From: a virus
Lineage: Duplodnaviria; Caudoviricetes
Strand: one strand, 5' to 3'
IMG/VR virus record: IMGVR_UViG_2889388703_000001
Location: 1 to 64,000 of that record
Length of the DNA: 64,000 nt
Shown here: piece after piece, positions 1,690 to 17,406 of the stretch
How the letters are laid out: the number at the start of each line of letters is the position of its first letter
Numbering within the stretch: the first letter of the stretch is position 1
Notes under the pieces: generated by a model
Seen by the model: the letters and a program-made list of their open reading frames with translations, nothing else
The model's database searches: none
What the model was told of the DNA's origin: nothing
Position numbers and translations under genes: made by a program

Positions 1690-3390
1690 TTATGCTACTT
1701 TAAAATGTTTTTCTGATAATCTTAGACATAAGCATTCACAAAGGACGCGAGCCATATTTACCTCTACAGCATTCCCAATAAACTTCTTCTGGTCAGCTTG
1801 TGTACCGACAAGAATATAGTTTTCAGGGAAACCCATAATCTTTTTCAGCTCGTCTATGCGAAGCATACGCATCTTTATGTCTGCCAATCCATACACAAGC
1901 ATAAATTGCTTGATTTTTACAGTCATCGGGCTGTCTCCATTTTCTATGCAGATACCTATGCCATCTTTTGTGTTGACAAGGTAAGGAGGCATTTTATCCA
2001 TTCTTGCTATAAGCGTGAAACACGGATTATCTACCGAACCGCCTGCACTTGCAAATTGCGGATTCATCAGGAAGCTTTTTCTTTTGCATGTAACCATGCT
2101 GTATTTGGGATTGGTGGTAATAGCTCCTAACGGTTTTTCTATGGAAGCTGCACTGGAAGCGCCAAATTGCTGGTCGATAAATACGGGTGTCACCATTCTT
2201 TGCTTTGGTACGGTTGTTACGGCAGGACATGGCTCGTTAACACTACCTAACTGACCACCTCCTGAATAATAATTCATAAAGAATGGAGTAACTAAAGCAA
2301 GACGATCCTTTGTAGTTACGGTTGGAGCAGGACTATCTACCGAATGATTATTTCCGTTACCATAATAAGCTGAAACGAAAGCATGATGGTCCTTGCAGGT
2401 AATTGTTCCTGCTGGCTCTTCTACAGAAATATTCTTACTCCCAGGATGTCCGCTGTACTGCTTTGATAGGAAACTTACTTTTGCCAAAGCCAAGCGGCCC
2501 TGCGTAGCCACAGTTGGGCATGGTTCGTCAATGCTTGGTGACTGATATTTACCTGTCCGGCTCATAGAGTTGTATTTTACTATAAAAGCATCTTTTCCAC
2601 CGGCCACAAACTTAATCAGTCCGGCATAAATTCGTTCGAGTGTCTTTTCTGCAAGCGGTTTTTTCCTTGTGAAAATGCTTTCACCTTCGTCCGAAAAATC
2701 CAGCACTTCTTTTACGGGCCTCCATGTCTCCAGCTTGCTGAACATATCTTTCCTTCCATTCTTGCAGTGTGTCGCTTCCGGGAATACGATAGGAAGTCCT
2801 TTCTTTGCAAATATGCCAAAGAAGCGTTTTCTGGTAGTATATGCTCCGTAATCGGCCGCATTAAGTATCCGCCAATCGAAGTCATATCCGTATTTCTTTA
2901 CGTTTCGTTTCCACTTCTCATAACAACGACCTTTATCTTTGCTTACCGGATGTCCTTTTTCGTCCATGTCTCCCCAGCTCATAAACTCCTCCACGTTTTC
3001 AATCTGAATATAGTCAGGGTTTATGGCTTCAATGTAACGGAAAAGATGTTCGGCCAGTGTCCGGCTGTCTGCATCGCGAGGTTGTCCGCCTTTTGCCTTG
3101 CTGAAATTGGTACATTCCAGCGAAGCCCATAGAACTACATACGCATCCGGATATTGCATTTTCATCTTCTCTACATGCGCGACCAGTCCTGAAAGCTCCA
3201 GCGTTCGGATGTCCTCTGTGAAATGAAGCGCGTCCGGATGATTTGCCGCATGGCTGGCGATGGCATTAGCATCGTGATTTACACAGGCTATTACTTTTGC
3301 GCATTGTGATTCGTTGACACGTGCATTTTCTACACCGGTAGAAGTTCCTCCGGCTCCACAAAAAAGGTCGATGTATAATAAATTTATCAT
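1690..3390 (-). CDS. DNA (cytosine-5) methyltransferase, large phage type
   Basis: DLFCGAGG motif I, SLEC catalytic variant, ENV, RKR, GNAV motif X; start moved to MINLL at 3390. Confidence 0.9.
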   Translation of the reverse strand: MINLLYIDLFCGAGGTSTGVENARVNESQCAKVIACVNHDANAIASHAANHPDALHFTEDIRTLELSGLVAHVEKMKMQYPDAYVVLWASLECTNFSKAKGGQPRDADSRTLAEHLFRYIEAINPDYIQIENVEEFMSWGDMDEKGHPVSKDKGRCYEKWKRNVKKYGYDFDWRILNAADYGAYTTRKRFFGIFAKKGLPIVFPEATHCKNGRKDMFSKLETWRPVKEVLDFSDEGESIFTRKKPLAEKTLERIYAGLIKFVAGGKDAFIVKYNSMSRTGKYQSPSIDEPCPTVATQGRLALAKVSFLSKQYSGHPGSKNISVEEPAGTITCKDHHAFVSAYYGNGNNHSVDSPAPTVTTKDRLALVTPFFMNYYSGGGQLGSVNEPCPAVTTVPKQRMVTPVFIDQQFGASSAASIEKPLGAITTNPKYSMVTCKRKSFLMNPQFASAGGSVDNPCFTLIARMDKMPPYLVNTKDGIGICIENGDSPMTVKIKQFMLVYGLADIKMRMLRIDELKKIMGFPENYILVGTQADQKKFIGNAVEVNMARVLCECLCLRLSEKHFKVA

Positions 3391-3391
3391 T

Positions 3392-3712
3392 TTATCTGTA
3401 AAATTTGAAATGTGAGTGTGTACCCTTCGGACGCACATTTCGGTTAAACTTTGTATGGTACTTCTTACCGTCCTTATGGGGTACGTGACGGTTCTGACCG
3501 ACAATACTGAAATAGAACGGCACATGGCGTGAGGTATGGCGGTTGCGGTTGGCTATCTCATGCTGTTTATAGCGTTTTGTAGGAGTGTGGTATCTACATC
3601 TTATTGTATATGTGTTTGAATCTAAATCGGAATATCTTAATCTTGTTCTGATTCTGCTGCATCCCATCCTGATGACATCATAAGTGCTATAAGTATATTT
3701 ATCCCTCGACAT
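3392..3712 (-). CDS. Hypothetical basic protein
   Basis: ORF fits the operon packing. Confidence 0.5.
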   Translation of the reverse strand: MSRDKYTYSTYDVIRMGCSRIRTRLRYSDLDSNTYTIRCRYHTPTKRYKQHEIANRNRHTSRHVPFYFSIVGQNRHVPHKDGKKYHTKFNRNVRPKGTHSHFKFYR

Positions 3713-6589: not shown

Positions 6590-8279
6590 TTTCTTCTGAT
6601 TTATCGTTGTTATCGTTATATACTTTCTCCATTTCTCGGAAAAGACGTTTATAAACCTCCGGGAGTGTGCCTTTCTCTTTTGTATCACGTAGGGAAGCAA
6701 ACAGCACGTAACGGGGGTCTGCACCCAGCATCTTACCCACGTCCATTACAAGCGGACCGACGGCTTTCTCCGCATGGGGATAGGATGCCAGGTCGCCCAT
6801 GGCCTCCAGTTCCAGCAGCCGGTCTGTTCCTACACCTGCCATGGAAGCAAACTTTTCGCGGGTATAACCGTGCATCTCATACATGGCACGCACGCCCTGA
6901 CCGAGGTTGAGTTCGTATCGGCATCCGTCTTTTAGTGCGAGCTGACTCACTTTGACCGTTTTCAGCATACGGAGTGTACGCGCCATTACGTCGGCATCCG
7001 CACGCGCTATGTATTCTGCCATAGCCTTCTTTGTGCCAAACACGTTGTACAGATAGCGTAGGGTAAGCATACTCAGTGTGCCGTGATTGCGGTAGACTTC
7101 CTGACGAAGCTTTCTGAGAGTAATGGATTCGTTTGTTTCAGGTACTGTGCGGATATGGTCTTCCAGGCATAGGTGACGGAACTTGTCAATCACGCTTTCG
7201 CCTTCTGCCTTTGCATCGGGCAACATTTCCATGGCATCGTACACCTCATAGTCGTCCGATTCAGGAAGAGGGATCGAAGCGATTTCATTCAGCAGCATAC
7301 GCACGTTGTTCGTAGTGCCCATGCGTGCCATCAGTGTGCGGTAGTCCTGAAAGCAGAGCCCTTCTCCGGCCATCTTCATGCGCAGACTGGCGATGACGTA
7401 TTCTATAAACTCTACCTGTAGCGAAACGATTCCGCTCTCCACCAGTTTCAACAGGTCGTCTTTCACCAGCTCCATCTGGAACTGTGCGGTCAAGGTGCGC
7501 ACATCCGTTCCCTCCTTATCGGGTATTTCAATGTTTCCCACCATCTCACGCAGCATATCTTTCACCGCAGCCATCATCTTTTCGTTGTGCTGGCTTTTCT
7601 GCCGGTTCACCTTCCCTACTCCGTTGAGCAGTCCGTCCACCTTCCGGCACATGCAGTCGTAGAACTCGATTCCGGTGGTACACATCATGGCCACCATCTC
7701 CATGTTCGATACAAGGTCGCTCTGGCGCACGTTGCACTTGTCGAGTGCATTTTTGGTAGCAAAATAAATGAGGTTGATTTTTTCTCCGTAGGTCTTCCAG
7801 AAGATGTTCTGAAGCTTCTGTGTCAGTGTGCCGCCCCCCCTCATGAAACTTCCGGACAGACCGGGGTGGATGGTTTCTGTAAAGGTACGAACCTGCATGG
7901 CATCGTGCGCATTGCATCGCTTCATAAGGTCACTAGACAGATTTACCAGTTCGTTGGCCCTGCGCTTCATGTTGTGACGCATCAGTCCGCGTTCCTTCAG
8001 GCAGGAAACCACTTCGTAGATGTATTTCTGAGTGATATTGGTCATCATGATTTCCACCATGAGCAGGTGGGCGTTCAGAATGTCTGCACTGGCCATGCGC
8101 TGCTGTGCAGTGTAGCGGTCAAACCGGTTTCGTTTGACGGGAATCATGGATTTCGGACGGCTGATAGAAGCCGCAAGCCCTGTTTCAGAGCTTTTCCCCT
8201 TCATGGGTAAAATGGTGGAGGGAGCCTGCAAGAAAGGATTGTTTCCCAGATTCCCTGCCGGGTTTGTAAATTCGTTCAT
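6564..8279 (-). CDS. Hypothetical protein with C-terminal XRE-like HTH
   Basis: 571 aa ORF; LGQGVRAMYEMHGYTREKFASMAGVGTDRLLELE resembles an HTH. Confidence 0.6.
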   Translation of the reverse strand: MNEFTNPAGNLGNNPFLQAPSTILPMKGKSSETGLAASISRPKSMIPVKRNRFDRYTAQQRMASADILNAHLLMVEIMMTNITQKYIYEVVSCLKERGLMRHNMKRRANELVNLSSDLMKRCNAHDAMQVRTFTETIHPGLSGSFMRGGGTLTQKLQNIFWKTYGEKINLIYFATKNALDKCNVRQSDLVSNMEMVAMMCTTGIEFYDCMCRKVDGLLNGVGKVNRQKSQHNEKMMAAVKDMLREMVGNIEIPDKEGTDVRTLTAQFQMELVKDDLLKLVESGIVSLQVEFIEYVIASLRMKMAGEGLCFQDYRTLMARMGTTNNVRMLLNEIASIPLPESDDYEVYDAMEMLPDAKAEGESVIDKFRHLCLEDHIRTVPETNESITLRKLRQEVYRNHGTLSMLTLRYLYNVFGTKKAMAEYIARADADVMARTLRMLKTVKVSQLALKDGCRYELNLGQGVRAMYEMHGYTREKFASMAGVGTDRLLELEAMGDLASYPHAEKAVGPLVMDVGKMLGADPRYVLFASLRDTKEKGTLPEVYKRLFREMEKVYNDNNDKSEENGKEEKKE

Positions 8280-10671: not shown

Positions 10672-11109
10672 TTACCAGTTCAGCAATGAAAAACGTCTGG
10701 AATGTTTGGGCTGCATCATTTCCATTTTCCGCAGTCGTTCGTCGTCAATCACCACATTCGGCACATCGCACGAGTCGCAGGATGGTTTCATTACACGCAC
10801 AATACCGAGCGCGACGGCCATCACCAGCAGTCGCTCGGCTGAATCGAGCGTGGCCCCTTCGTATCGGCTTCCGTGACCGCGTGCCAGAATCCATGGAGCG
10901 CCTTCCGGACGATTGCTGTAACGCATCACGCGAGGAAGTCCCTTCACAGCCGAAAGCACAAACATATATTTTTCTTCCAGCCGGCTACGGCAAAAGGTAT
11001 GCGCACCTTCCGTAAGTCCTGGAACGGTTACGGTTTCTCCGCAACGCTCGTTTGTGCGGTAGGTGGCATACTGGTATATGTGGTTTATTGTATCGGTGGT
11101 GACGTTCAT
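10672..11109 (-). CDS. Hypothetical protein
   Basis: ORF overlapping the MTase stop. Confidence 0.55.
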   Translation of the reverse strand: MNVTTDTINHIYQYATYRTNERCGETVTVPGLTEGAHTFCRSRLEEKYMFVLSAVKGLPRVMRYSNRPEGAPWILARGHGSRYEGATLDSAERLLVMAVALGIVRVMKPSCDSCDVPNVVIDDERLRKMEMMQPKHSRRFSLLNW

Positions 11110-11903
11110 GGCTTAAATAAATCTCCTTGTATCAGTTTACCGTTTGCGGTATTAATTCCTTTCTGGGCTGAAAATATTCTTTCCTGAGAAATGTCGAAAT
11201 ACTTCTTTTCTTTCTCATATCCGATAAAGTTACGCCCTGTATTCATGCAAGCTACACCGGTCGTTCCACTACCCATACAGTTGTCCATCACTGTATCACC
11301 TTCGTCTGTGTAAGTTCGTATGAGATATTCTAAAAGTGCTACTGGCTTCTGTGTAGGATGATAAAAGCTGTCATGCTCTTTGGGGATATCTATTACCGAA
11401 AGCGGATATTTCTCGTTGGTAAATACAGTATCTACTACCTTGAAATCTCCGTAACATTTATTATTTGATTGAACCCCTCTTACATTTCTTCCGTGATTCT
11501 TCTCCCCTATTGTCATTTGAGGATGATATACAGGAAGCTTCTGGTAGAATACCGCTATATCTTCGTGATTACGTAACGGCATACGGTTAGCATTCAGGAA
11601 TCCGGATGAACGTGTACCTTTCTTCCAGATTAAATTGTATCTCCACATTTTTGGATTGCTAATCATCAGACGGGCTGTAAACATTCCCTGACAGAATAAG
11701 ATAATAGCACCGTTTGGTTTTATCAGTCTGCGATACTGACTCCAAAGTTCATCAAGAGGAAGTTCCGTATCCCATTTTGCATGAGGATTCTGTTTATTCA
11801 GCACACCATACGGAAGATCACATATAATACAGTCCAAGGAATGAGCTTCCAAAGAAGCCATTCCTATCATACAATCCATATTGAAAATACTTGCTTGCGG
11901 CAT
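11106..11903 (-). CDS. DNA adenine/N4-cytosine methyltransferase (beta class)
   Basis: DLPY catalytic motif, HPTQKP, DNCMGSGTT SAM motif. Confidence 0.9.
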   Translation of the reverse strand: MPQASIFNMDCMIGMASLEAHSLDCIICDLPYGVLNKQNPHAKWDTELPLDELWSQYRRLIKPNGAIILFCQGMFTARLMISNPKMWRYNLIWKKGTRSSGFLNANRMPLRNHEDIAVFYQKLPVYHPQMTIGEKNHGRNVRGVQSNNKCYGDFKVVDTVFTNEKYPLSVIDIPKEHDSFYHPTQKPVALLEYLIRTYTDEGDTVMDNCMGSGTTGVACMNTGRNFIGYEKEKKYFDISQERIFSAQKGINTANGKLIQGDLFKP

Positions 11904-11907
11904 ACCA

Positions 11908-12492
11908 CTATCTCACTACAAGATTATTCTTTTCAACCAGATGCACACAGTTTATTTGAGCCAGGCAGTCGGCCAGCGGAGTGTGTCTGTCCGCCACCTT
12001 CGGAGGAAGAAGACCTGCACTATCCAGAGCATCCATATACGGACGCACATCGCGCACTTTCCGGAAGTTCCACGGAAGCACTTCTTCGTCGCATCTGTAC
12101 ACGTTCAAGTTATACCATGAATACATGGAACGAAGCATAGCCACGTCGAAATCCAGCTGAAGACACCATAACGTGAAGTCCCTTTCTTCGTCTGTATCAG
12201 CAAGAAATTCCATAAATTCTTCAAAAAAATCCACCAGCGGTGTTTCTACACCTTCCACAAATTCGCGCCGTGCTTCGTCCGACTGCATCATCCACCATTT
12301 AAGTGTAGATGCTTCTACCTTAAAACCGTATCGCATGGAATCGGTAAGGTCTATTTTCCACACCTTCTGTCGTCCGGTTTCACCCGTTTGCGGGTCAAAC
12401 TCTACGGCAGCCACCGAACGGACCACGCTTCCAGGTGTCCTTCCCAGCGTTTCCGTATCTATCATTACATGCTTGAATTTCTTCTCTCCCAT
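11908..12492 (-). CDS. DEDD 3'-5' exonuclease (Rv2179c/DUF5051-like)
   Basis: HVMIDTETLG, TLKWWM, FDVAML, RDVR, HTPLADC. Confidence 0.85.
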   Translation of the reverse strand: MGEKKFKHVMIDTETLGRTPGSVVRSVAAVEFDPQTGETGRQKVWKIDLTDSMRYGFKVEASTLKWWMMQSDEARREFVEGVETPLVDFFEEFMEFLADTDEERDFTLWCLQLDFDVAMLRSMYSWYNLNVYRCDEEVLPWNFRKVRDVRPYMDALDSAGLLPPKVADRHTPLADCLAQINCVHLVEKNNLVVR

Positions 12493-12939: not shown

Positions 12940-13415
12940 ACTTTCTTCCGTTTTGAATCAAACTCCTGCTGGAGGATGGTTTCGTATTCCTCGCCCAGCG
13001 GATAGCGGCTGCACAGGTACGCCTTTCCGTTGTAGATAAACCACTGAGGAGTGTGCTGGCGGTTTATGGGAATGCCAAACGCCACCCGGAAATCGTCGGA
13101 GGTCACGTCCGGCAGGTCCATGATTTTACGTGCTATCTCCTGCCCTTTCTCGTTCTGCATATTCGGTATATATTCTCCCTTACCGATAAACTGGTAGGCA
13201 AAAAGGTTGGGAACTCTATGGAACTTCAGGCTTCCGATTCCTACTCCCGGGAACAGCCGTCCCGGACGATCCGTTCGCGATTCAGCACCCAGACTGGCAG
13301 CCAGTTCGTTGGCCGCTTCCACCGCTCTATTCCCTTTCTCAATCAGTTCCTGAATGCAGCGTCCGCGATGCGTGTTCGATAGCGACACCTTGTAGTAATA
13401 TCTTTTTTCTTCCAT
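12936..13415 (-). CDS. Hypothetical protein
   Basis: 159 aa ORF in operon. Confidence 0.6.
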   Translation of the reverse strand: MEEKRYYYKVSLSNTHRGRCIQELIEKGNRAVEAANELAASLGAESRTDRPGRLFPGVGIGSLKFHRVPNLFAYQFIGKGEYIPNMQNEKGQEIARKIMDLPDVTSDDFRVAFGIPINRQHTPQWFIYNGKAYLCSRYPLGEEYETILQQEFDSKRKKV

Positions 13416-13528
13416 GCCGTTTTCAGATAAATTGTTTTATAAGACTAATGATTCCATACAGGCAGAATCCTACTACCAGTACCAGGCCAATCAGGATAAG
13501 GCATCCCTTCATGGCCATCTTCTTCAAT

Positions 13529-13894
13529 TCATTCATAATCCACTCCTTTCTCCAGCGTCATGCCGGGAATGTAATACATTCCGCAGTTGTTCAGTTTTTC
13601 GAGCGCCGTCTGGATGCTCTTCTGTGAATTATTCACGTAGTTCACCAGATAAGCTTTCTTCCCGTTGTACATAGCAGGAATGAATACCGGCATCACCTGG
13701 TTCCACGGCAGCACACCTCGCGGCACATTACGCATCAGGCAGTCGTCTGTGGGAATTTCCTCGGCATCCTTTGGCAGATGTTCAAGAAAAATGTGTGAGT
13801 CGCCTTCCTCGGCGAGCGCAGTAATAAGGGGATTTTGCAGTTTCGAAAACAGAGCTTTGTTAAGCTCCCTGCGTCGTTGATTAGTGTAGATCAT
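13529..13894 (-). CDS. Hypothetical protein
   Basis: ORF; the track start (13969) lies inside the promoter, so MIYTNQ is the likelier start. Confidence 0.55.
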   Translation of the reverse strand: MIYTNQRRRELNKALFSKLQNPLITALAEEGDSHIFLEHLPKDAEEIPTDDCLMRNVPRGVLPWNQVMPVFIPAMYNGKKAYLVNYVNNSQKSIQTALEKLNNCGMYYIPGMTLEKGVDYE

Positions 13895-13935
13895 TTGCCC
13901 TGCTTTAATGGTTAATTCATTGTTTTTCTTTTGCA

Positions 13936-13980
13936 TGGCAAATGTAACAATTTTAAGCAAGAATCGCATTAAAATTGTAT
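13936..13980 (-). promoter_or_regulatory. Promoter/operator repeat, copy 2
   Basis: TGGCAAATGTAACAATTTTAA-N8-CGCATTAAAATTGT. Confidence 0.7.
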
Positions 13981-13989
13981 CTAAAATTC

Positions 13990-14021
13990 AAAAAAACCAC
14001 CGGTTCACGCCTGAACCGGTG
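13990..14021 (-). terminator. Intrinsic terminator ending the early island transcript
   Basis: CACCGGTTCA/TGAACCGGTG stem with an A-run on its left (U-tract on minus strand). Confidence 0.7.
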
Positions 14022-14052
14022 CTGAATATCAATTAATTGAAGTGTATGTTTT

Positions 14053-14472
14053 TTATCTTCTGTTTTCCTCTTCAATGTTGGCAATCATTTCCTCGTAAAC
14101 TTGCGGAGTTATTGCCGGGTCCTCGGTGTCGGTCGTACCGATTTGACGTATCACCACCTCACAGCCCAGGAAGTGAGCCATGCGCAGGAAGTTCACTATG
14201 TGTGTGTCTTTCCCACGAGAGATGTCGCGGATAGCTTCGTAGGAAACGCCCGTATCTTTGTCGGCCGTCATGAAGTTAACTCCGCAAATCTCCGCACGGG
14301 TGAACAGGAATTTACCTATTTCCTTGGCCGATTTAATGGCACTGTCCGGATAACGCGGAGGATTTGTCGGCAGATTCAGTGCACGATGAATGTTGTAACG
14401 GCGGTATCTTACCACCAGGTAGCCTGCACAAAGCAGGACGCAGATAACTGAGAAAATTGTTGTTCCGTCCAT
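14053..14472 (-). CDS. Membrane-anchored XRE-type HTH protein
   Basis: N-terminal hydrophobic helix; TGVSYEAIRDISRGKDTHIVNFLRMAHFLGCEV HTH. Confidence 0.65.
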   Translation of the reverse strand: MDGTTIFSVICVLLCAGYLVVRYRRYNIHRALNLPTNPPRYPDSAIKSAKEIGKFLFTRAEICGVNFMTADKDTGVSYEAIRDISRGKDTHIVNFLRMAHFLGCEVVIRQIGTTDTEDPAITPQVYEEMIANIEEENRR

Positions 14473-14476
14473 AATT

Positions 14477-14704
14477 TTACTCTATTTCGTTTAAACTTTC
14501 AATTGATTCTTCAATGCTTGAAAGGGCTTCTTCCATATATTCTATGTACTCTTGCATCCGCTCTCCTTTTTCTGATTCCTGGAAAGACTCAGGGAGGTTA
14601 TCAAAGGCTTCCTGTTCTTCGTCTTTGAGTTCTTCAAGTTCCTCATATACTTTTCTCAACGACTCTCTTACGTCTTCGATTTCTTTTCTTCTTTTTTTAT
14701 TCAT
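14477..14704 (-). CDS. Small, very acidic coiled-coil protein
   Basis: 75 aa, E/D-rich. Confidence 0.75.
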   Translation of the reverse strand: MNKKRRKEIEDVRESLRKVYEELEELKDEEQEAFDNLPESFQESEKGERMQEYIEYMEEALSSIEESIESLNEIE

Positions 14705-14727
14705 ACGTTTATAATTTAAAAATGAAG

Positions 14728-14803
14728 AAGGCCGGCGGGGTATTACTCTCCGTCGGCCTTTGCTCTAACTTAAAATTCCGCTTCACAGCGGCAGGAAATT
14801 ATG
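14728..14803 (-). repeat. Inverted leader module A (hairpin + anti-start-region sequence with GUGA tetraloop)
   Basis: Plus strand: GGCCGGCGG..CCGTCGGCC, TCTAACTTAAAA, CCGCTTCACAGCGG, GGAAATTATG. Confidence 0.8.
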
Positions 14804-14847
14804 AATTATTTTATGTGTAAATTTTTTCTTTTTAGAATAATGTTTTA

Positions 14848-14855
14848 TACATTTG
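14848..14855 (+). promoter_or_regulatory. Bacteroidetes -7 promoter element for the crRNA-like unit
   Basis: TACATTTG matches TAnnTTTG; no perfect -33 TTTG. Confidence 0.55.
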
Positions 14856-14948
14856 CATTGTCCTTCAATGGAATTGAAACAATTTCTACTATTTGTAGAT
14901 TATAAAAAGTAAGCTTACTCTTTTAATCGTACCAGAAGGATTTTAAAA
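14851..14948 (+). CRISPR. Solitary mini-array / crRNA mimic: type I-B-like repeat halves around a 39-nt spacer that starts with a Cas12a-type repeat
   Basis: ...ATGGAATTGAAAC (ends 14880), then AATTTCTACTATTTGTAGAT (14881-14900), TATAAAAAGTAAGCTTACT, then CTTTTAATCGTACCAGAAGGA (from 14920); no cas genes in the window. Confidence 0.7.
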
Positions 14949-14973
14949 GGCTACCATGCGGTAGCCTTTTTTT
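14945..14973. terminator. Bidirectional intrinsic terminator
   Basis: AAAAGGCTACC-ATGC-GGTAGCCTTTTTTT. Confidence 0.85.
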
Positions 14974-15598
14974 ATTCTTCGTCATCAAACATACTTCTTT
15001 CAGAAACTTCACATATACAGAAGTTTTTATTTTCGTACTGAGAGAATCTGAAATAATATTTTTCTCCTTTTACTTCGGCAATACCTCGTTTGTATTCTGG
15101 TCTTTCTAATGTATAGAACTCATTCAGTATTTCCTTTTCAAGTTCACTATCTTCATATTCATATTCTGCACCTACTTCTTCACCACCGATAATAGCAGAA
15201 CGATTGTTGTGTCCGTCCCAATATTGAATAGCTTCACATTCTATGTAGTATGCTTCGTCCTCCTCAAATTTACTGATGAAATCGTTGATTTCTTTCTCTT
15301 TTTCTTTAAGTCCTATATCTTCTGCATTGTCAATGGTAAGGTCGTTCTTATCGTATTCCATATCAGAGAATGACTCTCCAAATATTTCAACCCCTTTCGC
15401 TTTCATTTCATTTTCCATGCTGTCACAATAGCAGTTCTTCAGTGAATAGTCTCCGGCTGCTTCTGCGTCAAGTTGCTGTCCGTATTGATCATAGCAGTCA
15501 TGCAGATTTACTTTTTTTACAACATCGGCAGCAATGATATACATTTCGTTGTTATCCCATTTGGAAACAATCACTTTAAGTTTCTTATCTTCAAACAT
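14972..15598 (-). CDS. Highly acidic hypothetical protein (anti-defence/DNA-mimic candidate)
   Basis: 208 aa, strongly D/E-rich; located in the island. Confidence 0.75.
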   Translation of the reverse strand: MFEDKKLKVIVSKWDNNEMYIIAADVVKKVNLHDCYDQYGQQLDAEAAGDYSLKNCYCDSMENEMKAKGVEIFGESFSDMEYDKNDLTIDNAEDIGLKEKEKEINDFISKFEEDEAYYIECEAIQYWDGHNNRSAIIGGEEVGAEYEYEDSELEKEILNEFYTLERPEYKRGIAEVKGEKYYFRFSQYENKNFCICEVSERSMFDDEE

Positions 15599-15723
15599 AA
15601 TTCTATACAGTTTTTTTCGTGTGCCTCACGATTCAGATTAAACATTGCTGGCTGGCGGAGTATCACTCTCCGTCGGCCTTTGCTCTAACTTAAAACTCCG
15701 CTTCACAGCGGCAGGAAATTATG
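15599..15723 (-). repeat. Inverted leader module B
   Basis: TATACAGTTTTT-CGTGTGCCTCACG-GATTAAACATT, GAGTATCACTC hairpin, TCTAACTTAAAA-CCGCTTCACAGCGG-GGAAATTATG. Confidence 0.8.
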
Positions 15724-15730
15724 ATTATTA

Positions 15731-15970
15731 TCATTTCAGAAAACATAATCCGCAACGGTATTCTTTCTTATCTTCCGGAACTTCATATTCTAGCAGGTAT
15801 TCCGCAAAGAAATCTTTCGCTTCCTCTTCAGTTCCGTTTACATCTTCACAAGCGCTGTCGTCTAAAATTATTTTCCCATCACATACAAGACGGTAGTATC
15901 CGCTTATGGACTGTTCGCATTCAAAATTCTTTCCTGTTGCTTTTACTACATCCTCAAAACTAGCTTTCAT
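15731..15970 (-). CDS. Small acidic hypothetical protein
   Basis: 79 aa, flanked by repeat modules. Confidence 0.7.
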   Translation of the reverse strand: MKASFEDVVKATGKNFECEQSISGYYRLVCDGKIILDDSACEDVNGTEEEAKDFFAEYLLEYEVPEDKKEYRCGLCFLK

Positions 15971-16093
15971 GACTCTATACAGTTTTTTCCGTGTGCCTCA
16001 CGATTTGATTAAACATTTGTAGTCCGACTGAGTATTACTCCCAGCCGGACTTTACTCTAACTTAATACTTCGCTTCACAGCGATATGGAATAT
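15971..16093 (-). repeat. Inverted leader module C
   Basis: Same architecture as B (TCTAACTTAATA, CGCTTCACAGCG, GGAATAT). Confidence 0.75.
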
Positions 16094-16097
16094 AATA

Positions 16098-16403
16098 TTA
16101 TTCCTTAATACTATTAAAAATGCTTCTATATATCTTGTTTATTTCCTCAACAGTTAAGAGTTTATTTTTAAGCTCCAATAAACATTCTTCAAAGGTTTCA
16201 CGTTTCGTATAACAGAAACGACTTCCTCCAACAGCATTATATTCAACTGTATTATTCCCTAACGTAATACTCAGATGGTTAGCACCATTAATGTGTATAT
16301 AACCATGGCATTCATCCACGCCCACGCTATACCCTTTCCCTATTTTTTCAACTTCTTTTTCTAGAGATTTGATAAATTTTTTTTGTTCTTGATTGAAACA
16401 CAT
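16098..16403 (-). CDS. Hypothetical protein
   Basis: Start moved to MCFNQ at 16403, next to the repeated leader. Confidence 0.65.
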   Translation of the reverse strand: MCFNQEQKKFIKSLEKEVEKIGKGYSVGVDECHGYIHINGANHLSITLGNNTVEYNAVGGSRFCYTKRETFEECLLELKNKLLTVEEINKIYRSIFNSIKE

Positions 16404-16514
16404 AATAATATACAGTTTTACGTGTGTCTCACGATTTATATTAAACATTTGTAGCCCGAAAGAGTATCACCTCCGCCGGACTTGTTCTAACTTAAAACTA
16501 ACTTGTGGAATTAT
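16404..16514 (-). repeat. Inverted leader module D
   Basis: CGTGTGTCTCACG, GAGTATCAC hairpin, TCTAACTTAAAACTAACTTGTGGAATTAT (no GUGA hairpin). Confidence 0.7.
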
Positions 16515-16588
16515 TTTGTTAACGGTTTATATGTATTTCCCATAATTCTAAAAGTTTGACGTTGTAAATATAGTCATTTTTCACAAGT

Positions 16589-16668
16589 AGCCGAAGGAAA
16601 ATCACTTTTCCTACGGCTGATTTACTAACTTAAAAACTAACGCTTCACAGCGTGACCGATGGAATTAT
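16589..16668 (-). repeat. Inverted leader module E
   Basis: AGCCGAAGGAAAATCACTTTTCCTACGGCT hairpin, CTAACTTAAAAA, CGCTTCACAGCG, GGAATTAT. Confidence 0.7.
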
Positions 16669-16877
16669 AGTATCCAATCAATTTTTTCTAATTCTTCTTT
16701 CTCTTTTGGAGTTAATGAACACAGAAAATCACAATTACTATAGTATTCACCATTTTCTTCCGGATCTAAAAATGAACTTTCAGAAGCACTAACTATTTTC
16801 TGTATGGCATAATATAATTCTAAACTTATACCAGTTATGCTTACCGTTCCGTTCTTATTAAATCTTGTTCTGCTCAT
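16665..16877 (-). CDS. Small hypothetical protein
   Basis: Start moved to MSRTRF at 16877, after the conserved leader. Confidence 0.65.
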   Translation of the reverse strand: MSRTRFNKNGTVSITGISLELYYAIQKIVSASESSFLDPEENGEYYSNCDFLCSLTPKEKEELEKIDWIL

Positions 16878-16944
16878 AATTCTTTTTATTTTATAGTTAC
16901 ACATCGGTTCCGGACCAGGATGCAAACCTGAATCCGGAAGTAGG

Positions 16945-17406
16945 TTAGATGCGCATCATGTCAAGACACTGTTTCATAGGTATAAGTTCGTCACCAAAGC
17001 ATTGTTGCAGGAAATTGTAAGACAGCTTAAAATTTCCTTTTACGCTTCTTATTTTAAATATCTTACCTTCACACAATGACCTGAGATTTTCATCGTCATT
17101 AAGCATCCAGAATAGTTTTTCTAAGGAGTATTTTGGAAGCATCCCAGATATTTGCAATTTACCTACAGGGTGAACTTCTTTAGGAACATCCATTACTGTT
17201 ACTTCGGCAGCAAAAATAGGAAAATCAATTATAGAATCTTGTAAATCGTTTAGATTGTTATCGTCACCTTCATATAGGAAAGCATATTTTCTGAATCTGC
17301 TCCATATCCCGGGTTTAAGAATACTTTTGGATATTTCTACTGGTTCACCTTTCATGAATGTTTCACCATTAGCTACTTTCTCGATTAAATTCTTTTCTAC
17401 TTTCAT
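16945..17406 (-). CDS. Hypothetical early protein
   Basis: ORF with conserved leader. Confidence 0.7.
   Translation of the reverse strand: MKVEKNLIEKVANGETFMKGEPVEISKSILKPGIWSRFRKYAFLYEGDDNNLNDLQDSIIDFPIFAAEVTVMDVPKEVHPVGKLQISGMLPKYSLEKLFWMLNDDENLRSLCEGKIFKIRSVKGNFKLSYNFLQQCFGDELIPMKQCLDMMRI

Follow-up and report, generated by a model that had tools for sequence, protein, structure and literature searches.

A candidate polyvalent RNA anti-CRISPR in a gut Bacteroidales phage, with a Cas12a handle nested between type I-B repeats

Results

The unit lies between two minus-strand genes of a gut Bacteroidales phage

The DNA analyzed here (the window) comprises the first 64 kb of a 101-kb IMG/VR virus record with an estimated completeness of 93%, which is the genome of a gut Bacteroidales phage. 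Comparison with PHROGs identified a terminase-like protein, a head maturation protease, two DNA methyltransferases, an exonuclease, and a primase-like protein. We had expected a crAss-like phage and dropped this label, as the PHROGs matches comprise only the terminase, the head protease, the methyltransferases, and the primase-like protein. Megablast of positions 13000–17000 against the GenBank phage collection gave no match. The unit under study occupies positions 14848–14976 (+), within a 267-nt gap that separates two minus-strand open reading frames (ORFs). According to the ORF list, PHROGs, and Pfam, the first of these (14477–14704, −) encodes a 75-aa protein of phrog_4068, to which no function is assigned, and the second (14972–15598, −) a 208-aa protein without a family match. 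The unit is therefore antisense to its neighbors. Terminator-like minus-strand hairpins are found just upstream of it, at 14778–14791 (−) and 14713–14760.

An earlier note, made from the letters of this DNA alone, had placed the unit in an anti-defense island. This label is unsupported, since the ten small neighboring proteins, which have no assigned function, gave no Pfam match above threshold. The sole pointers to anti-defense are the two DNA methyltransferases, located 3 and 11 kb from the unit and likely to serve anti-restriction functions. Their genes (phrog_116 and phrog_67) span 1690–3525 (−) and 11106–11903 (−), and the exonuclease gene (11908–12492) belongs to the same minus-strand block. 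In line with the note, which reported no cas gene in the window, none was seen; judged by ORF size, the phage genome has no open frame in the Cas12a range (about 1250–1350 aa). The largest frames, measured from stop to stop, are 1932 and 1124 aa long, and the shorter of these (1099 aa when counted from its ATG) gave a weak match to a primase-like protein.

Architecture of the unit

The unit opens with a Bacteroidetes-type −7 box, TACATTTG (14848–14855, +), for which the consensus is TAnnTTTG, and its position would set the transcription start near 14860–14862. The promoter overlaps the 5′ half of a degenerate, full-length type I-B repeat, here termed psiR1 (14851–14880, +; alignment A2). The last 14 nt of psiR1, AATGGAATTGAAAC, are exact and include the 8-nt crRNA 5′ handle ATTGAAAC; because CAATGGAATTGAAAC ends at 14880 in the window sequence, this handle corresponds to 14873–14880. 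The adjoining positions 14881–14900 (+) are an exact pattern match to the 3′ part of a type V-A (Cas12a) repeat, AATTTCTACTATTTGTAGAT, composed of AATTTCTAC-TATTT-GTAGAT and representing the mature crRNA handle. This sequence occurs once, both in the window and in the 101-kb genome, and 0.04 chance occurrences of the pattern AATTTCTACTNNNNGTAGAT with up to two mismatches are expected per window. The handle is followed by a 19-nt guide-position sequence (psiS, 14901–14919, +), which contains the perfect palindrome AGTAAGCTTACT at 14908–14919. Together, the V-A handle and psiS form a 39-nt 'spacer' that separates psiR1 from a second full-length type I-B repeat, psiR2 (14920–14949, +; alignment A2). 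This repeat, CTTTTAATCGTACCAGAAGGATTTTAAAAG, opens with CTTTTAATCGTACCAGAAGGA at 14920, and its 3′ handle has decayed from ATTGAAAC to TTTAAAAG. The end of psiR2 is overlapped by an intrinsic terminator identified by hairpin search (14945–14976, +), in which an 11-pair hairpin (14945–14970) precedes a T run. Every element listed in the earlier note was recovered, base for base, where it had been placed. Its description of a unit antisense to all its neighbors, equipped with its own −7 box and terminator, agrees with TACATTTG at 14848–14855, the 11-pair hairpin from 14945, and the minus-strand flanking ORFs.

The RNA corresponding to 14858–14976 folds far more stably than shuffled controls (z = −5.05), with much of the excess stability contributed by the terminator. 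In an Rfam scan at a permissive threshold, no CRISPR-DR family matched the unit, and the matches obtained were weak chance hits driven by the terminator. As the transcript probably starts inside psiR1, the RNA would carry this repeat without its 5′ half, and psiR1 may therefore fail as a Cas6 substrate. Since the I-B handle abuts the V-A handle, GGAAUUG-AAA-CAAUUUC at 14870–14887 could form a 7-pair hairpin (MFE fold) in the free RNA, which would leave both handles masked. A hairpin of this type is absent from the other I-B/V-A lineages described below, in which linkers lie between the handles.

A peptide gene was considered and rejected. The earlier note had named conservation of a 14-aa ORF (14868–14912) as a finding that would speak against its reading of the unit. 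This ORF is not conserved as coding sequence: the three changes seen in relatives are all non-synonymous and, inspected by eye, the other I-B/V-A lineages have no ATG.

The Cas12a handle is that of Bacteroidales type V-A arrays

Among 401 sampled Bacteroidales genomes, 47 hold the V-A motif and about 20 hold arrays. The handle with the loop TATT is present in about 20 Bacteroidales arrays, and arrays with the 5-nt loops TATTT or TATTC are rare in the Bacteroidaceae sample (2/401 species genomes). One Bacteroidaceae genome (G718) carries a 20-repeat array whose repeats end in ...AATTTCTACTATT(C/T)GTAGAT; one of these repeats is identical to the 20 nt at 14881–14900, and the array adjoins a gene whose 1254-aa product reaches 815.7 bits against TIGR04330, the model for Cas12a/Cpf1. 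The Cas12a identity assigned to these 20 nt in the earlier note is thus that of genuine Bacteroidales arrays adjoining Cas12a. A full-length V-A repeat (about 36 nt, with a GTCTAA...-type hairpin as its 5′ part) is absent from the phage, which has the mature handle only, and the 16 nt upstream of the handle belong to the I-B repeat rather than to a V-A repeat. None of 226 V-A spacers matched the phage or the other unit-bearing loci, so a host link of the kind described below for I-B was not found for V-A.

The flanking repeats belong to a type I-B family whose spacers match the phage

To characterize the I-B family, one genome per species was scanned with the pattern TTTTAATCGTACC(0-10 nt)ATGGAATTGAAA. 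The scan yielded 62 genomic loci, most of them true arrays, with up to 120 copies at a period of 63–67. Such arrays were found in Phocaeicola barnesiae, P. fibrisolvens, Bacteroides ilei, B. mediterraneensis, and Bacteroides sp. CAG:443, and likewise in Paraprevotella, Leyella stercorea, Segatella hominis, Prevotella, and environmental Bacteroidota; the commonest repeat of the family is the 29-mer CTTTTAATCGTACCTTATGGAATTGAAAC. In P. barnesiae, the array is preceded by cas6 (TIGR01877), an unrecognized 183-aa ORF, cas3, two unrecognized ORFs, cas4, and cas1, whose product reaches 462.7 bits against TIGR03641, the Cas1b model for type I-B. The putative cas8b, cas7, and cas5 ORFs beside the I-B arrays were recognized by neither Pfam nor NCBIfam. 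The Bacteroidetes I-B repeat and 8-nt handle given in the earlier note therefore exist as written in Bacteroidota arrays beside cas6, cas3, cas4, and cas1b.

The alignment of the repeat blocks to host arrays that had been proposed as a check matched all three of them. Counted by hand in alignment A2, psiR2 agrees with a real repeat variant at 24/30 positions, including all of its first 18, and psiR1 at 22/30, including all of its last 14; the V-A handle agrees with one repeat of the G718 array at 20/20 nt. Judged from these alignments, the likeness of the two I-B halves to real repeats is not due to chance. Since both repeat identities match real repeats, we conclude from sequence that the unit descends from, or copies, a repeat-spacer-repeat module, in which the first repeat has partly been made into a promoter and the second has lost its 3′ handle.

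Spacers of these I-B arrays match the phage. The best matches come from B. ilei (35/37, phage position 7574), Bacteroides sp. CAG:443 (35/40, position 74712), P. barnesiae (32/35, position 99637, and 30/34, position 89764), and B. mediterraneensis (30/35, position 2609). The trinucleotides on the 5′ side of these five best protospacers are CCN-like (CCA, CTG, CAA, CCG, and CCA). The phage therefore has Bacteroides- or Phocaeicola-like hosts with an I-B system that targets its lineage, which gives an I-B mimic a reason to exist.

No genome was found to hold both this I-B repeat family and a V-A array. The five I-B hosts examined have no V-A array, and the V-A hosts G718, G595, G033, and G304 do not have the I-B repeat of the unit. 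A large excess of TGGA(N)TTGAAAY in 3/21 V-A genomes (G281, G033, and G304) offered candidates for co-occurrence, all of which were rejected: G281 has a full I-C system instead, and the repeat family of the unit is absent from G033 and G304. A polyvalent unit may therefore suit a host range in which strains carry different systems, rather than a single host armed with both.

Composite units recur in independent phage lineages

An initial viral scan recovered ten near-identical homologs, together with two unrelated units in which ATTGAAAC stands ahead of a Cas12a handle. In the close relatives, the unit is almost unchanged, and conservation stops at its edge; the terminator hairpin is swapped at the same place in two of them (L011 and L070) and different in a third (L026). 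The earlier note had proposed to compare the conservation of the three blocks with that of a variable 19-nt part; in these relatives, psiS differs at the single position 14902 (A/C).

A loose viral scan with ATTGAAAC(0-30 nt)AATTTCTAC gave mostly chance matches among the matches listed, and it was replaced by two tighter pattern scans for composite units. These identified 47 distinct units on 63 contigs, nearly all viral. Repeats of types I-C and V-A are combined in 29 units, and five more carry two I-C repeats with the V-A repeat. The combination of types I-B and V-A is seen in six units from three unrelated lineages (the phage of the window, L228, and L355/L361), and all three of types I-B, I-C, and V-A are present in another six, one of which lies in a Leyella stercorea assembly (L223).

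In the three I-B/V-A lineages, the V-A handle is always nested between I-B pieces, with GGAATTGAAAY kept upstream and (T)TTAATCGTACC or ATTAATCGAACC downstream. The linker between the I-B and V-A handles measures 0 nt in the phage of the window, 18 nt in L228, and 8 nt in L355/L361, and in other lineages a hairpin, rather than a fixed seed, follows the V-A handle at a variable offset. In the I-C/V-A layout, a −7 box and a repeat of the form GTC-stem-loop-GTGGATTGAAAC lead, via a short hairpin, to the V-A handle, behind which lie a second hairpin, I-C-like but decayed, and the terminator. The I-C label is supported by G281, where cas3-cas5c-cas8c-cas7-cas4-cas1c-cas2 adjoins an array of GTCGCACCCCGCGTGGGTGCGTGGATTGAAAC and a V-A array is present too. 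In an alignment of 26 I-C/V-A units, neither the handles nor the Cas12a stem change, the Cas12a loop is variable, and the I-C stem covaries (AU 13 / GC 12; CG 19 / GC 3 / UA 1), a pattern that would be expected for recognition by Cas5c and Cas12a.

In units with all three subtypes (L223:3450–3546, and also L226, L204, L137, L347, L308, and L326), a single promoter is followed by a complete I-B repeat and, after about 21 nt with CTTCCGTTGAC at their end, by an I-C repeat; next come the V-A handle, with a hairpin on either side, and the terminator. Arrays of type I-B, with almost the same repeat as the triple unit, are present in the Leyella stercorea genome of L223 itself, which has no V-A array.

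Features of a transcription unit are common to the whole set: a T run lies downstream of 45/47 units, TAnnTTTG occurs within 75 nt upstream of the class 1 handle in 31/47 (commonest spacing, 25 nt), and 44/47 are intergenic. Orientation relative to the neighboring genes is mixed, with both neighbors opposite in 19 units and both the same in nine, so antisense placement is not a general feature. These counts bear on the proposal that the active RNA is read from the minus strand, either as a read-through anti-repeat RNA that pairs with host crRNA handles or as an unrelated regulatory small RNA. The antisense position of the unit relative to both neighbors, and the A and T runs that flank its terminator hairpin, would suit such an RNA. 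However, the promoter box and terminator fit the plus strand, the orientation is mixed in other lineages, and the repeats are always in sense behind TAnnTTTG, which leaves this proposal highly improbable.

Taken together, the repeat identities and the recurrence agree with the earlier description of class 1 (I-B) and class 2 (V-A) repeat modules nested in one short unit. The nested plan is not a one-off, and the distribution of the units indicates that the composite design arose repeatedly, in independent phage lineages. The recurrence also bears on a simpler account, in which only the Cas12a part works, as a plain V-A anti-CRISPR RNA, and the I-B pieces are relics of a captured repeat-spacer-repeat that now provide promoter and terminator context. 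Consistent with this account, psiR1 is degenerate and shares positions with the promoter, the handle of psiR2 is lost, and no genome with both systems was found. Yet the same two I-B pieces are kept in three unrelated I-B/V-A lineages, a complete I-B repeat stands ahead of the I-C and V-A repeats in six further units, the first 18 nt of psiR2 are exact, and I-B arrays target the phage. We consider this account quite unlikely.

The guide-position sequence and its possible targets

Searches for protospacers of psiS, proposed in the earlier note, found no target; the only matches were homologous units and one PAM-less site. The latter, at L296:3829–3849, is a 21-nt exact match to the palindrome region (AAAAAGTAAGCTTACTATTTT) between two minus-strand ORFs of an otherwise unrelated 23-kb viral contig. 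It was rejected as a target, as it has no Cas12a (V-A) handle and no TTTV PAM in register, and it may reflect a shared operator or terminator motif, or chance.

Beside a bivalent decoy, the note had offered two further options, a guide that redirects host Cascade onto V-A repeats and a mini-array directed against competing elements. Both can be framed as a working type I-B mini-array, whose 39-nt spacer sends host Cascade to V-A CRISPR repeats or to competing elements. The repeat-39 nt-repeat geometry is that of such an array, and the first 20 nt of the 'spacer' equal the end of every V-A repeat. On the other side, the repeats are degenerate, and the offset of the V-A handle differs among the nested lineages (0, 8, or 18 nt), so that they share no common Cascade seed. 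Moreover, host V-A repeats have ATA, TTT, TAA, AAA, ACT, or TAT before AATTTCTAC, in place of the CCN-like trinucleotides (CCA, CTG, CAA, CCG, and CCA) beside the phage protospacers. This mismatch and the variable linker disfavor redirection to V-A repeats, and the lack of a psiS target beyond homologous units and the PAM-less site disfavors an array against competing elements. A working mini-array is, on these grounds, very unlikely.

The unit might instead encode a Cas-repressing guide, that is, a Cracr or crRNA-like RNA that loads Cas12a or I-B Cascade and, by partial pairing with a host promoter (of cas12a, a cas operon, or a CRISPR-linked toxin), silences it. In favor of such a guide, the order of repeat, guide-position sequence, and terminator is that of CracrVA1 (bioRxiv 10.1101/2024.10.29.618823), and the guide-position 19 nt are almost invariant among the relatives, although these are too close for the conservation of psiS to be informative. 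Against it, the start of the guide, next to a TTTN PAM, had no match of at least 8 nt within 600 nt upstream of nine Bacteroidales cas12a-size ORFs (a small sample, with two confirmed as Cas12a). The same regions contained no CreR-like solitary repeat, and the hairpin at variable offset after the V-A handle in other lineages leaves no fixed seed. We judge a repressing guide unlikely.

Two host loci near cas12a-size or comparable ORFs may be recorded here. In L292 (G378), TTTT precedes GCTTTTAAT about 450 nt upstream of a cas12a-size ORF. The same 9 nt directly follow the V-A handle in the L008 unit, which makes this site a possible Cracr-type promoter match for the L008 lineage; the region is A+T-rich, and the match may be due to chance. 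A solitary V-A repeat at L283 (G093:C3), about 6 kb from a 3-repeat array and near an opposite-strand 1139-aa ORF, could be a host CreR-like regulator or an array remnant.

Discussion

Our analysis suggests that this phage gene probably encodes a small non-coding RNA about 115 nt long, which would act as a polyvalent, Racr-type decoy that mimics host repeats. Like solitary repeat units, it lies outside any array and away from cas genes, in intergenic DNA of a mobile element. Among the three options in the earlier note, the bivalent decoy is the best fit to the anatomy of the unit, the identity of both modules with real host repeats, the I-B spacers against the phage, and the recurrence of composites; its inhibitory function is the predicted part of that option. 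The transcription, processing, binding, and inhibition envisaged for the RNA would proceed as follows. The RNA would be transcribed from its own −7 promoter and stop at its own terminator. Its pseudoknot handle, AAUUUCUAC-loop-GUAGAU, would be offered to host Cas12a, which would cut at 14880/14881 and stay loaded with a useless guide. To the type I-B machinery, psiR1 would offer the 5′ handle AUUGAAAC and psiR2 the intact 18-nt 5′ part of a repeat, so that Cas6 and Cascade subunits could be drawn into complexes without an immune spacer. A single transcript could in this way blunt two CRISPR types found among Bacteroidaceae hosts.

A bolder version makes the nesting itself the mechanism, with the class 1 repeat pair framing the class 2 handle for unrelated effectors that act in turn or jointly. 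A Cas6 or Cas5c cut might release the Cas12a decoy, and Cascade assembly might stall on the folded Cas12a hairpin; alternatively, Cascade carrying the V-A repeat as its 'guide' might sit on host V-A arrays. We regard this version as rather doubtful. If true, such nesting would amount to a cross-class RNA sabotage device of gut Bacteroidales phages that exists in at least four modular versions and addresses up to three CRISPR subtypes.

The proposal of a polyvalent decoy builds on known systems. Solitary phage-borne I-C and V-A repeats (RacrIC1 and RacrVA1-3) inhibit their cognate systems (Camara-Wilpert et al., Nature 2023, PMC10651486). As in these Racrs, a copy of a host repeat is carried by a phage in an intergenic, cas-less location; Racrs are expressed as small RNAs, and expression of our unit is predicted. 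In contrast to Racrs (PMC10651486), the unit nests repeat modules of two CRISPR classes under one promoter and one terminator, and in composite relatives three subtypes of two classes share one transcription unit. Cracr RNAs and arrays also combine repeat-like sequence, spacer-like sequence, and terminator, are stackable as units, and include a V-A example that is processed by Cas12a (Liu et al., bioRxiv 10.1101/2024.10.29.618823). Our unit shares this layout but differs from Cracr arrays in that the CRISPR types differ within it and that no promoter target was found. It also resembles the mini-CRISPR arrays of phages and plasmids, in which two copies of a host repeat flank about 39 nt, except that both of its repeats are degenerate, the second has no handle, and its 'spacer' is the repeat of another system and has no target.

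Our literature search on cross-type or Bacteroidota composites found no prior description, in line with the earlier note, which knew of no described nested class 1/class 2 mimic. Phage RNAs that mimic two or three CRISPR systems at once would thus constitute a previously undescribed group, and most likely they jam these systems. Racrs are known as single-repeat decoys against single systems. Judging by the present units, phages that infect the main bacteria of the human gut may combine decoys against two or three CRISPR subtypes, from both classes, in a transcript of about 100 nt, and such polyvalent decoys fit a host population whose strains differ in CRISPR content. If true, this would extend the idea of RNA anti-CRISPRs to polyvalent and modular designs, help to explain how phages persist despite the spacers against them, and provide compact natural scaffolds for switching off several Cas effectors together.

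The search strategy used for solitary repeats offers a likely reason for the silence of the literature. SRUFinder takes full repeat matches for arrays, and drops them, when they lie within 100 bp of one another (PMC10651486), and composites have probably gone unreported for this reason. Any pipeline that discards neighboring repeat matches in this manner has a blind spot in which composite units would be missed.

Three viral contigs display an arrangement of their own. In L040, L061, and L064, a TAnnTTTG-like box precedes a pair of Cas12a handles (loops TGCGC and TGTT) at a distance of 35 nt from each other, and the stretch between them, GTCGTGGATTTCGC, resembles the end of an I-C repeat. This looks like a further composite layout, outside our search patterns.
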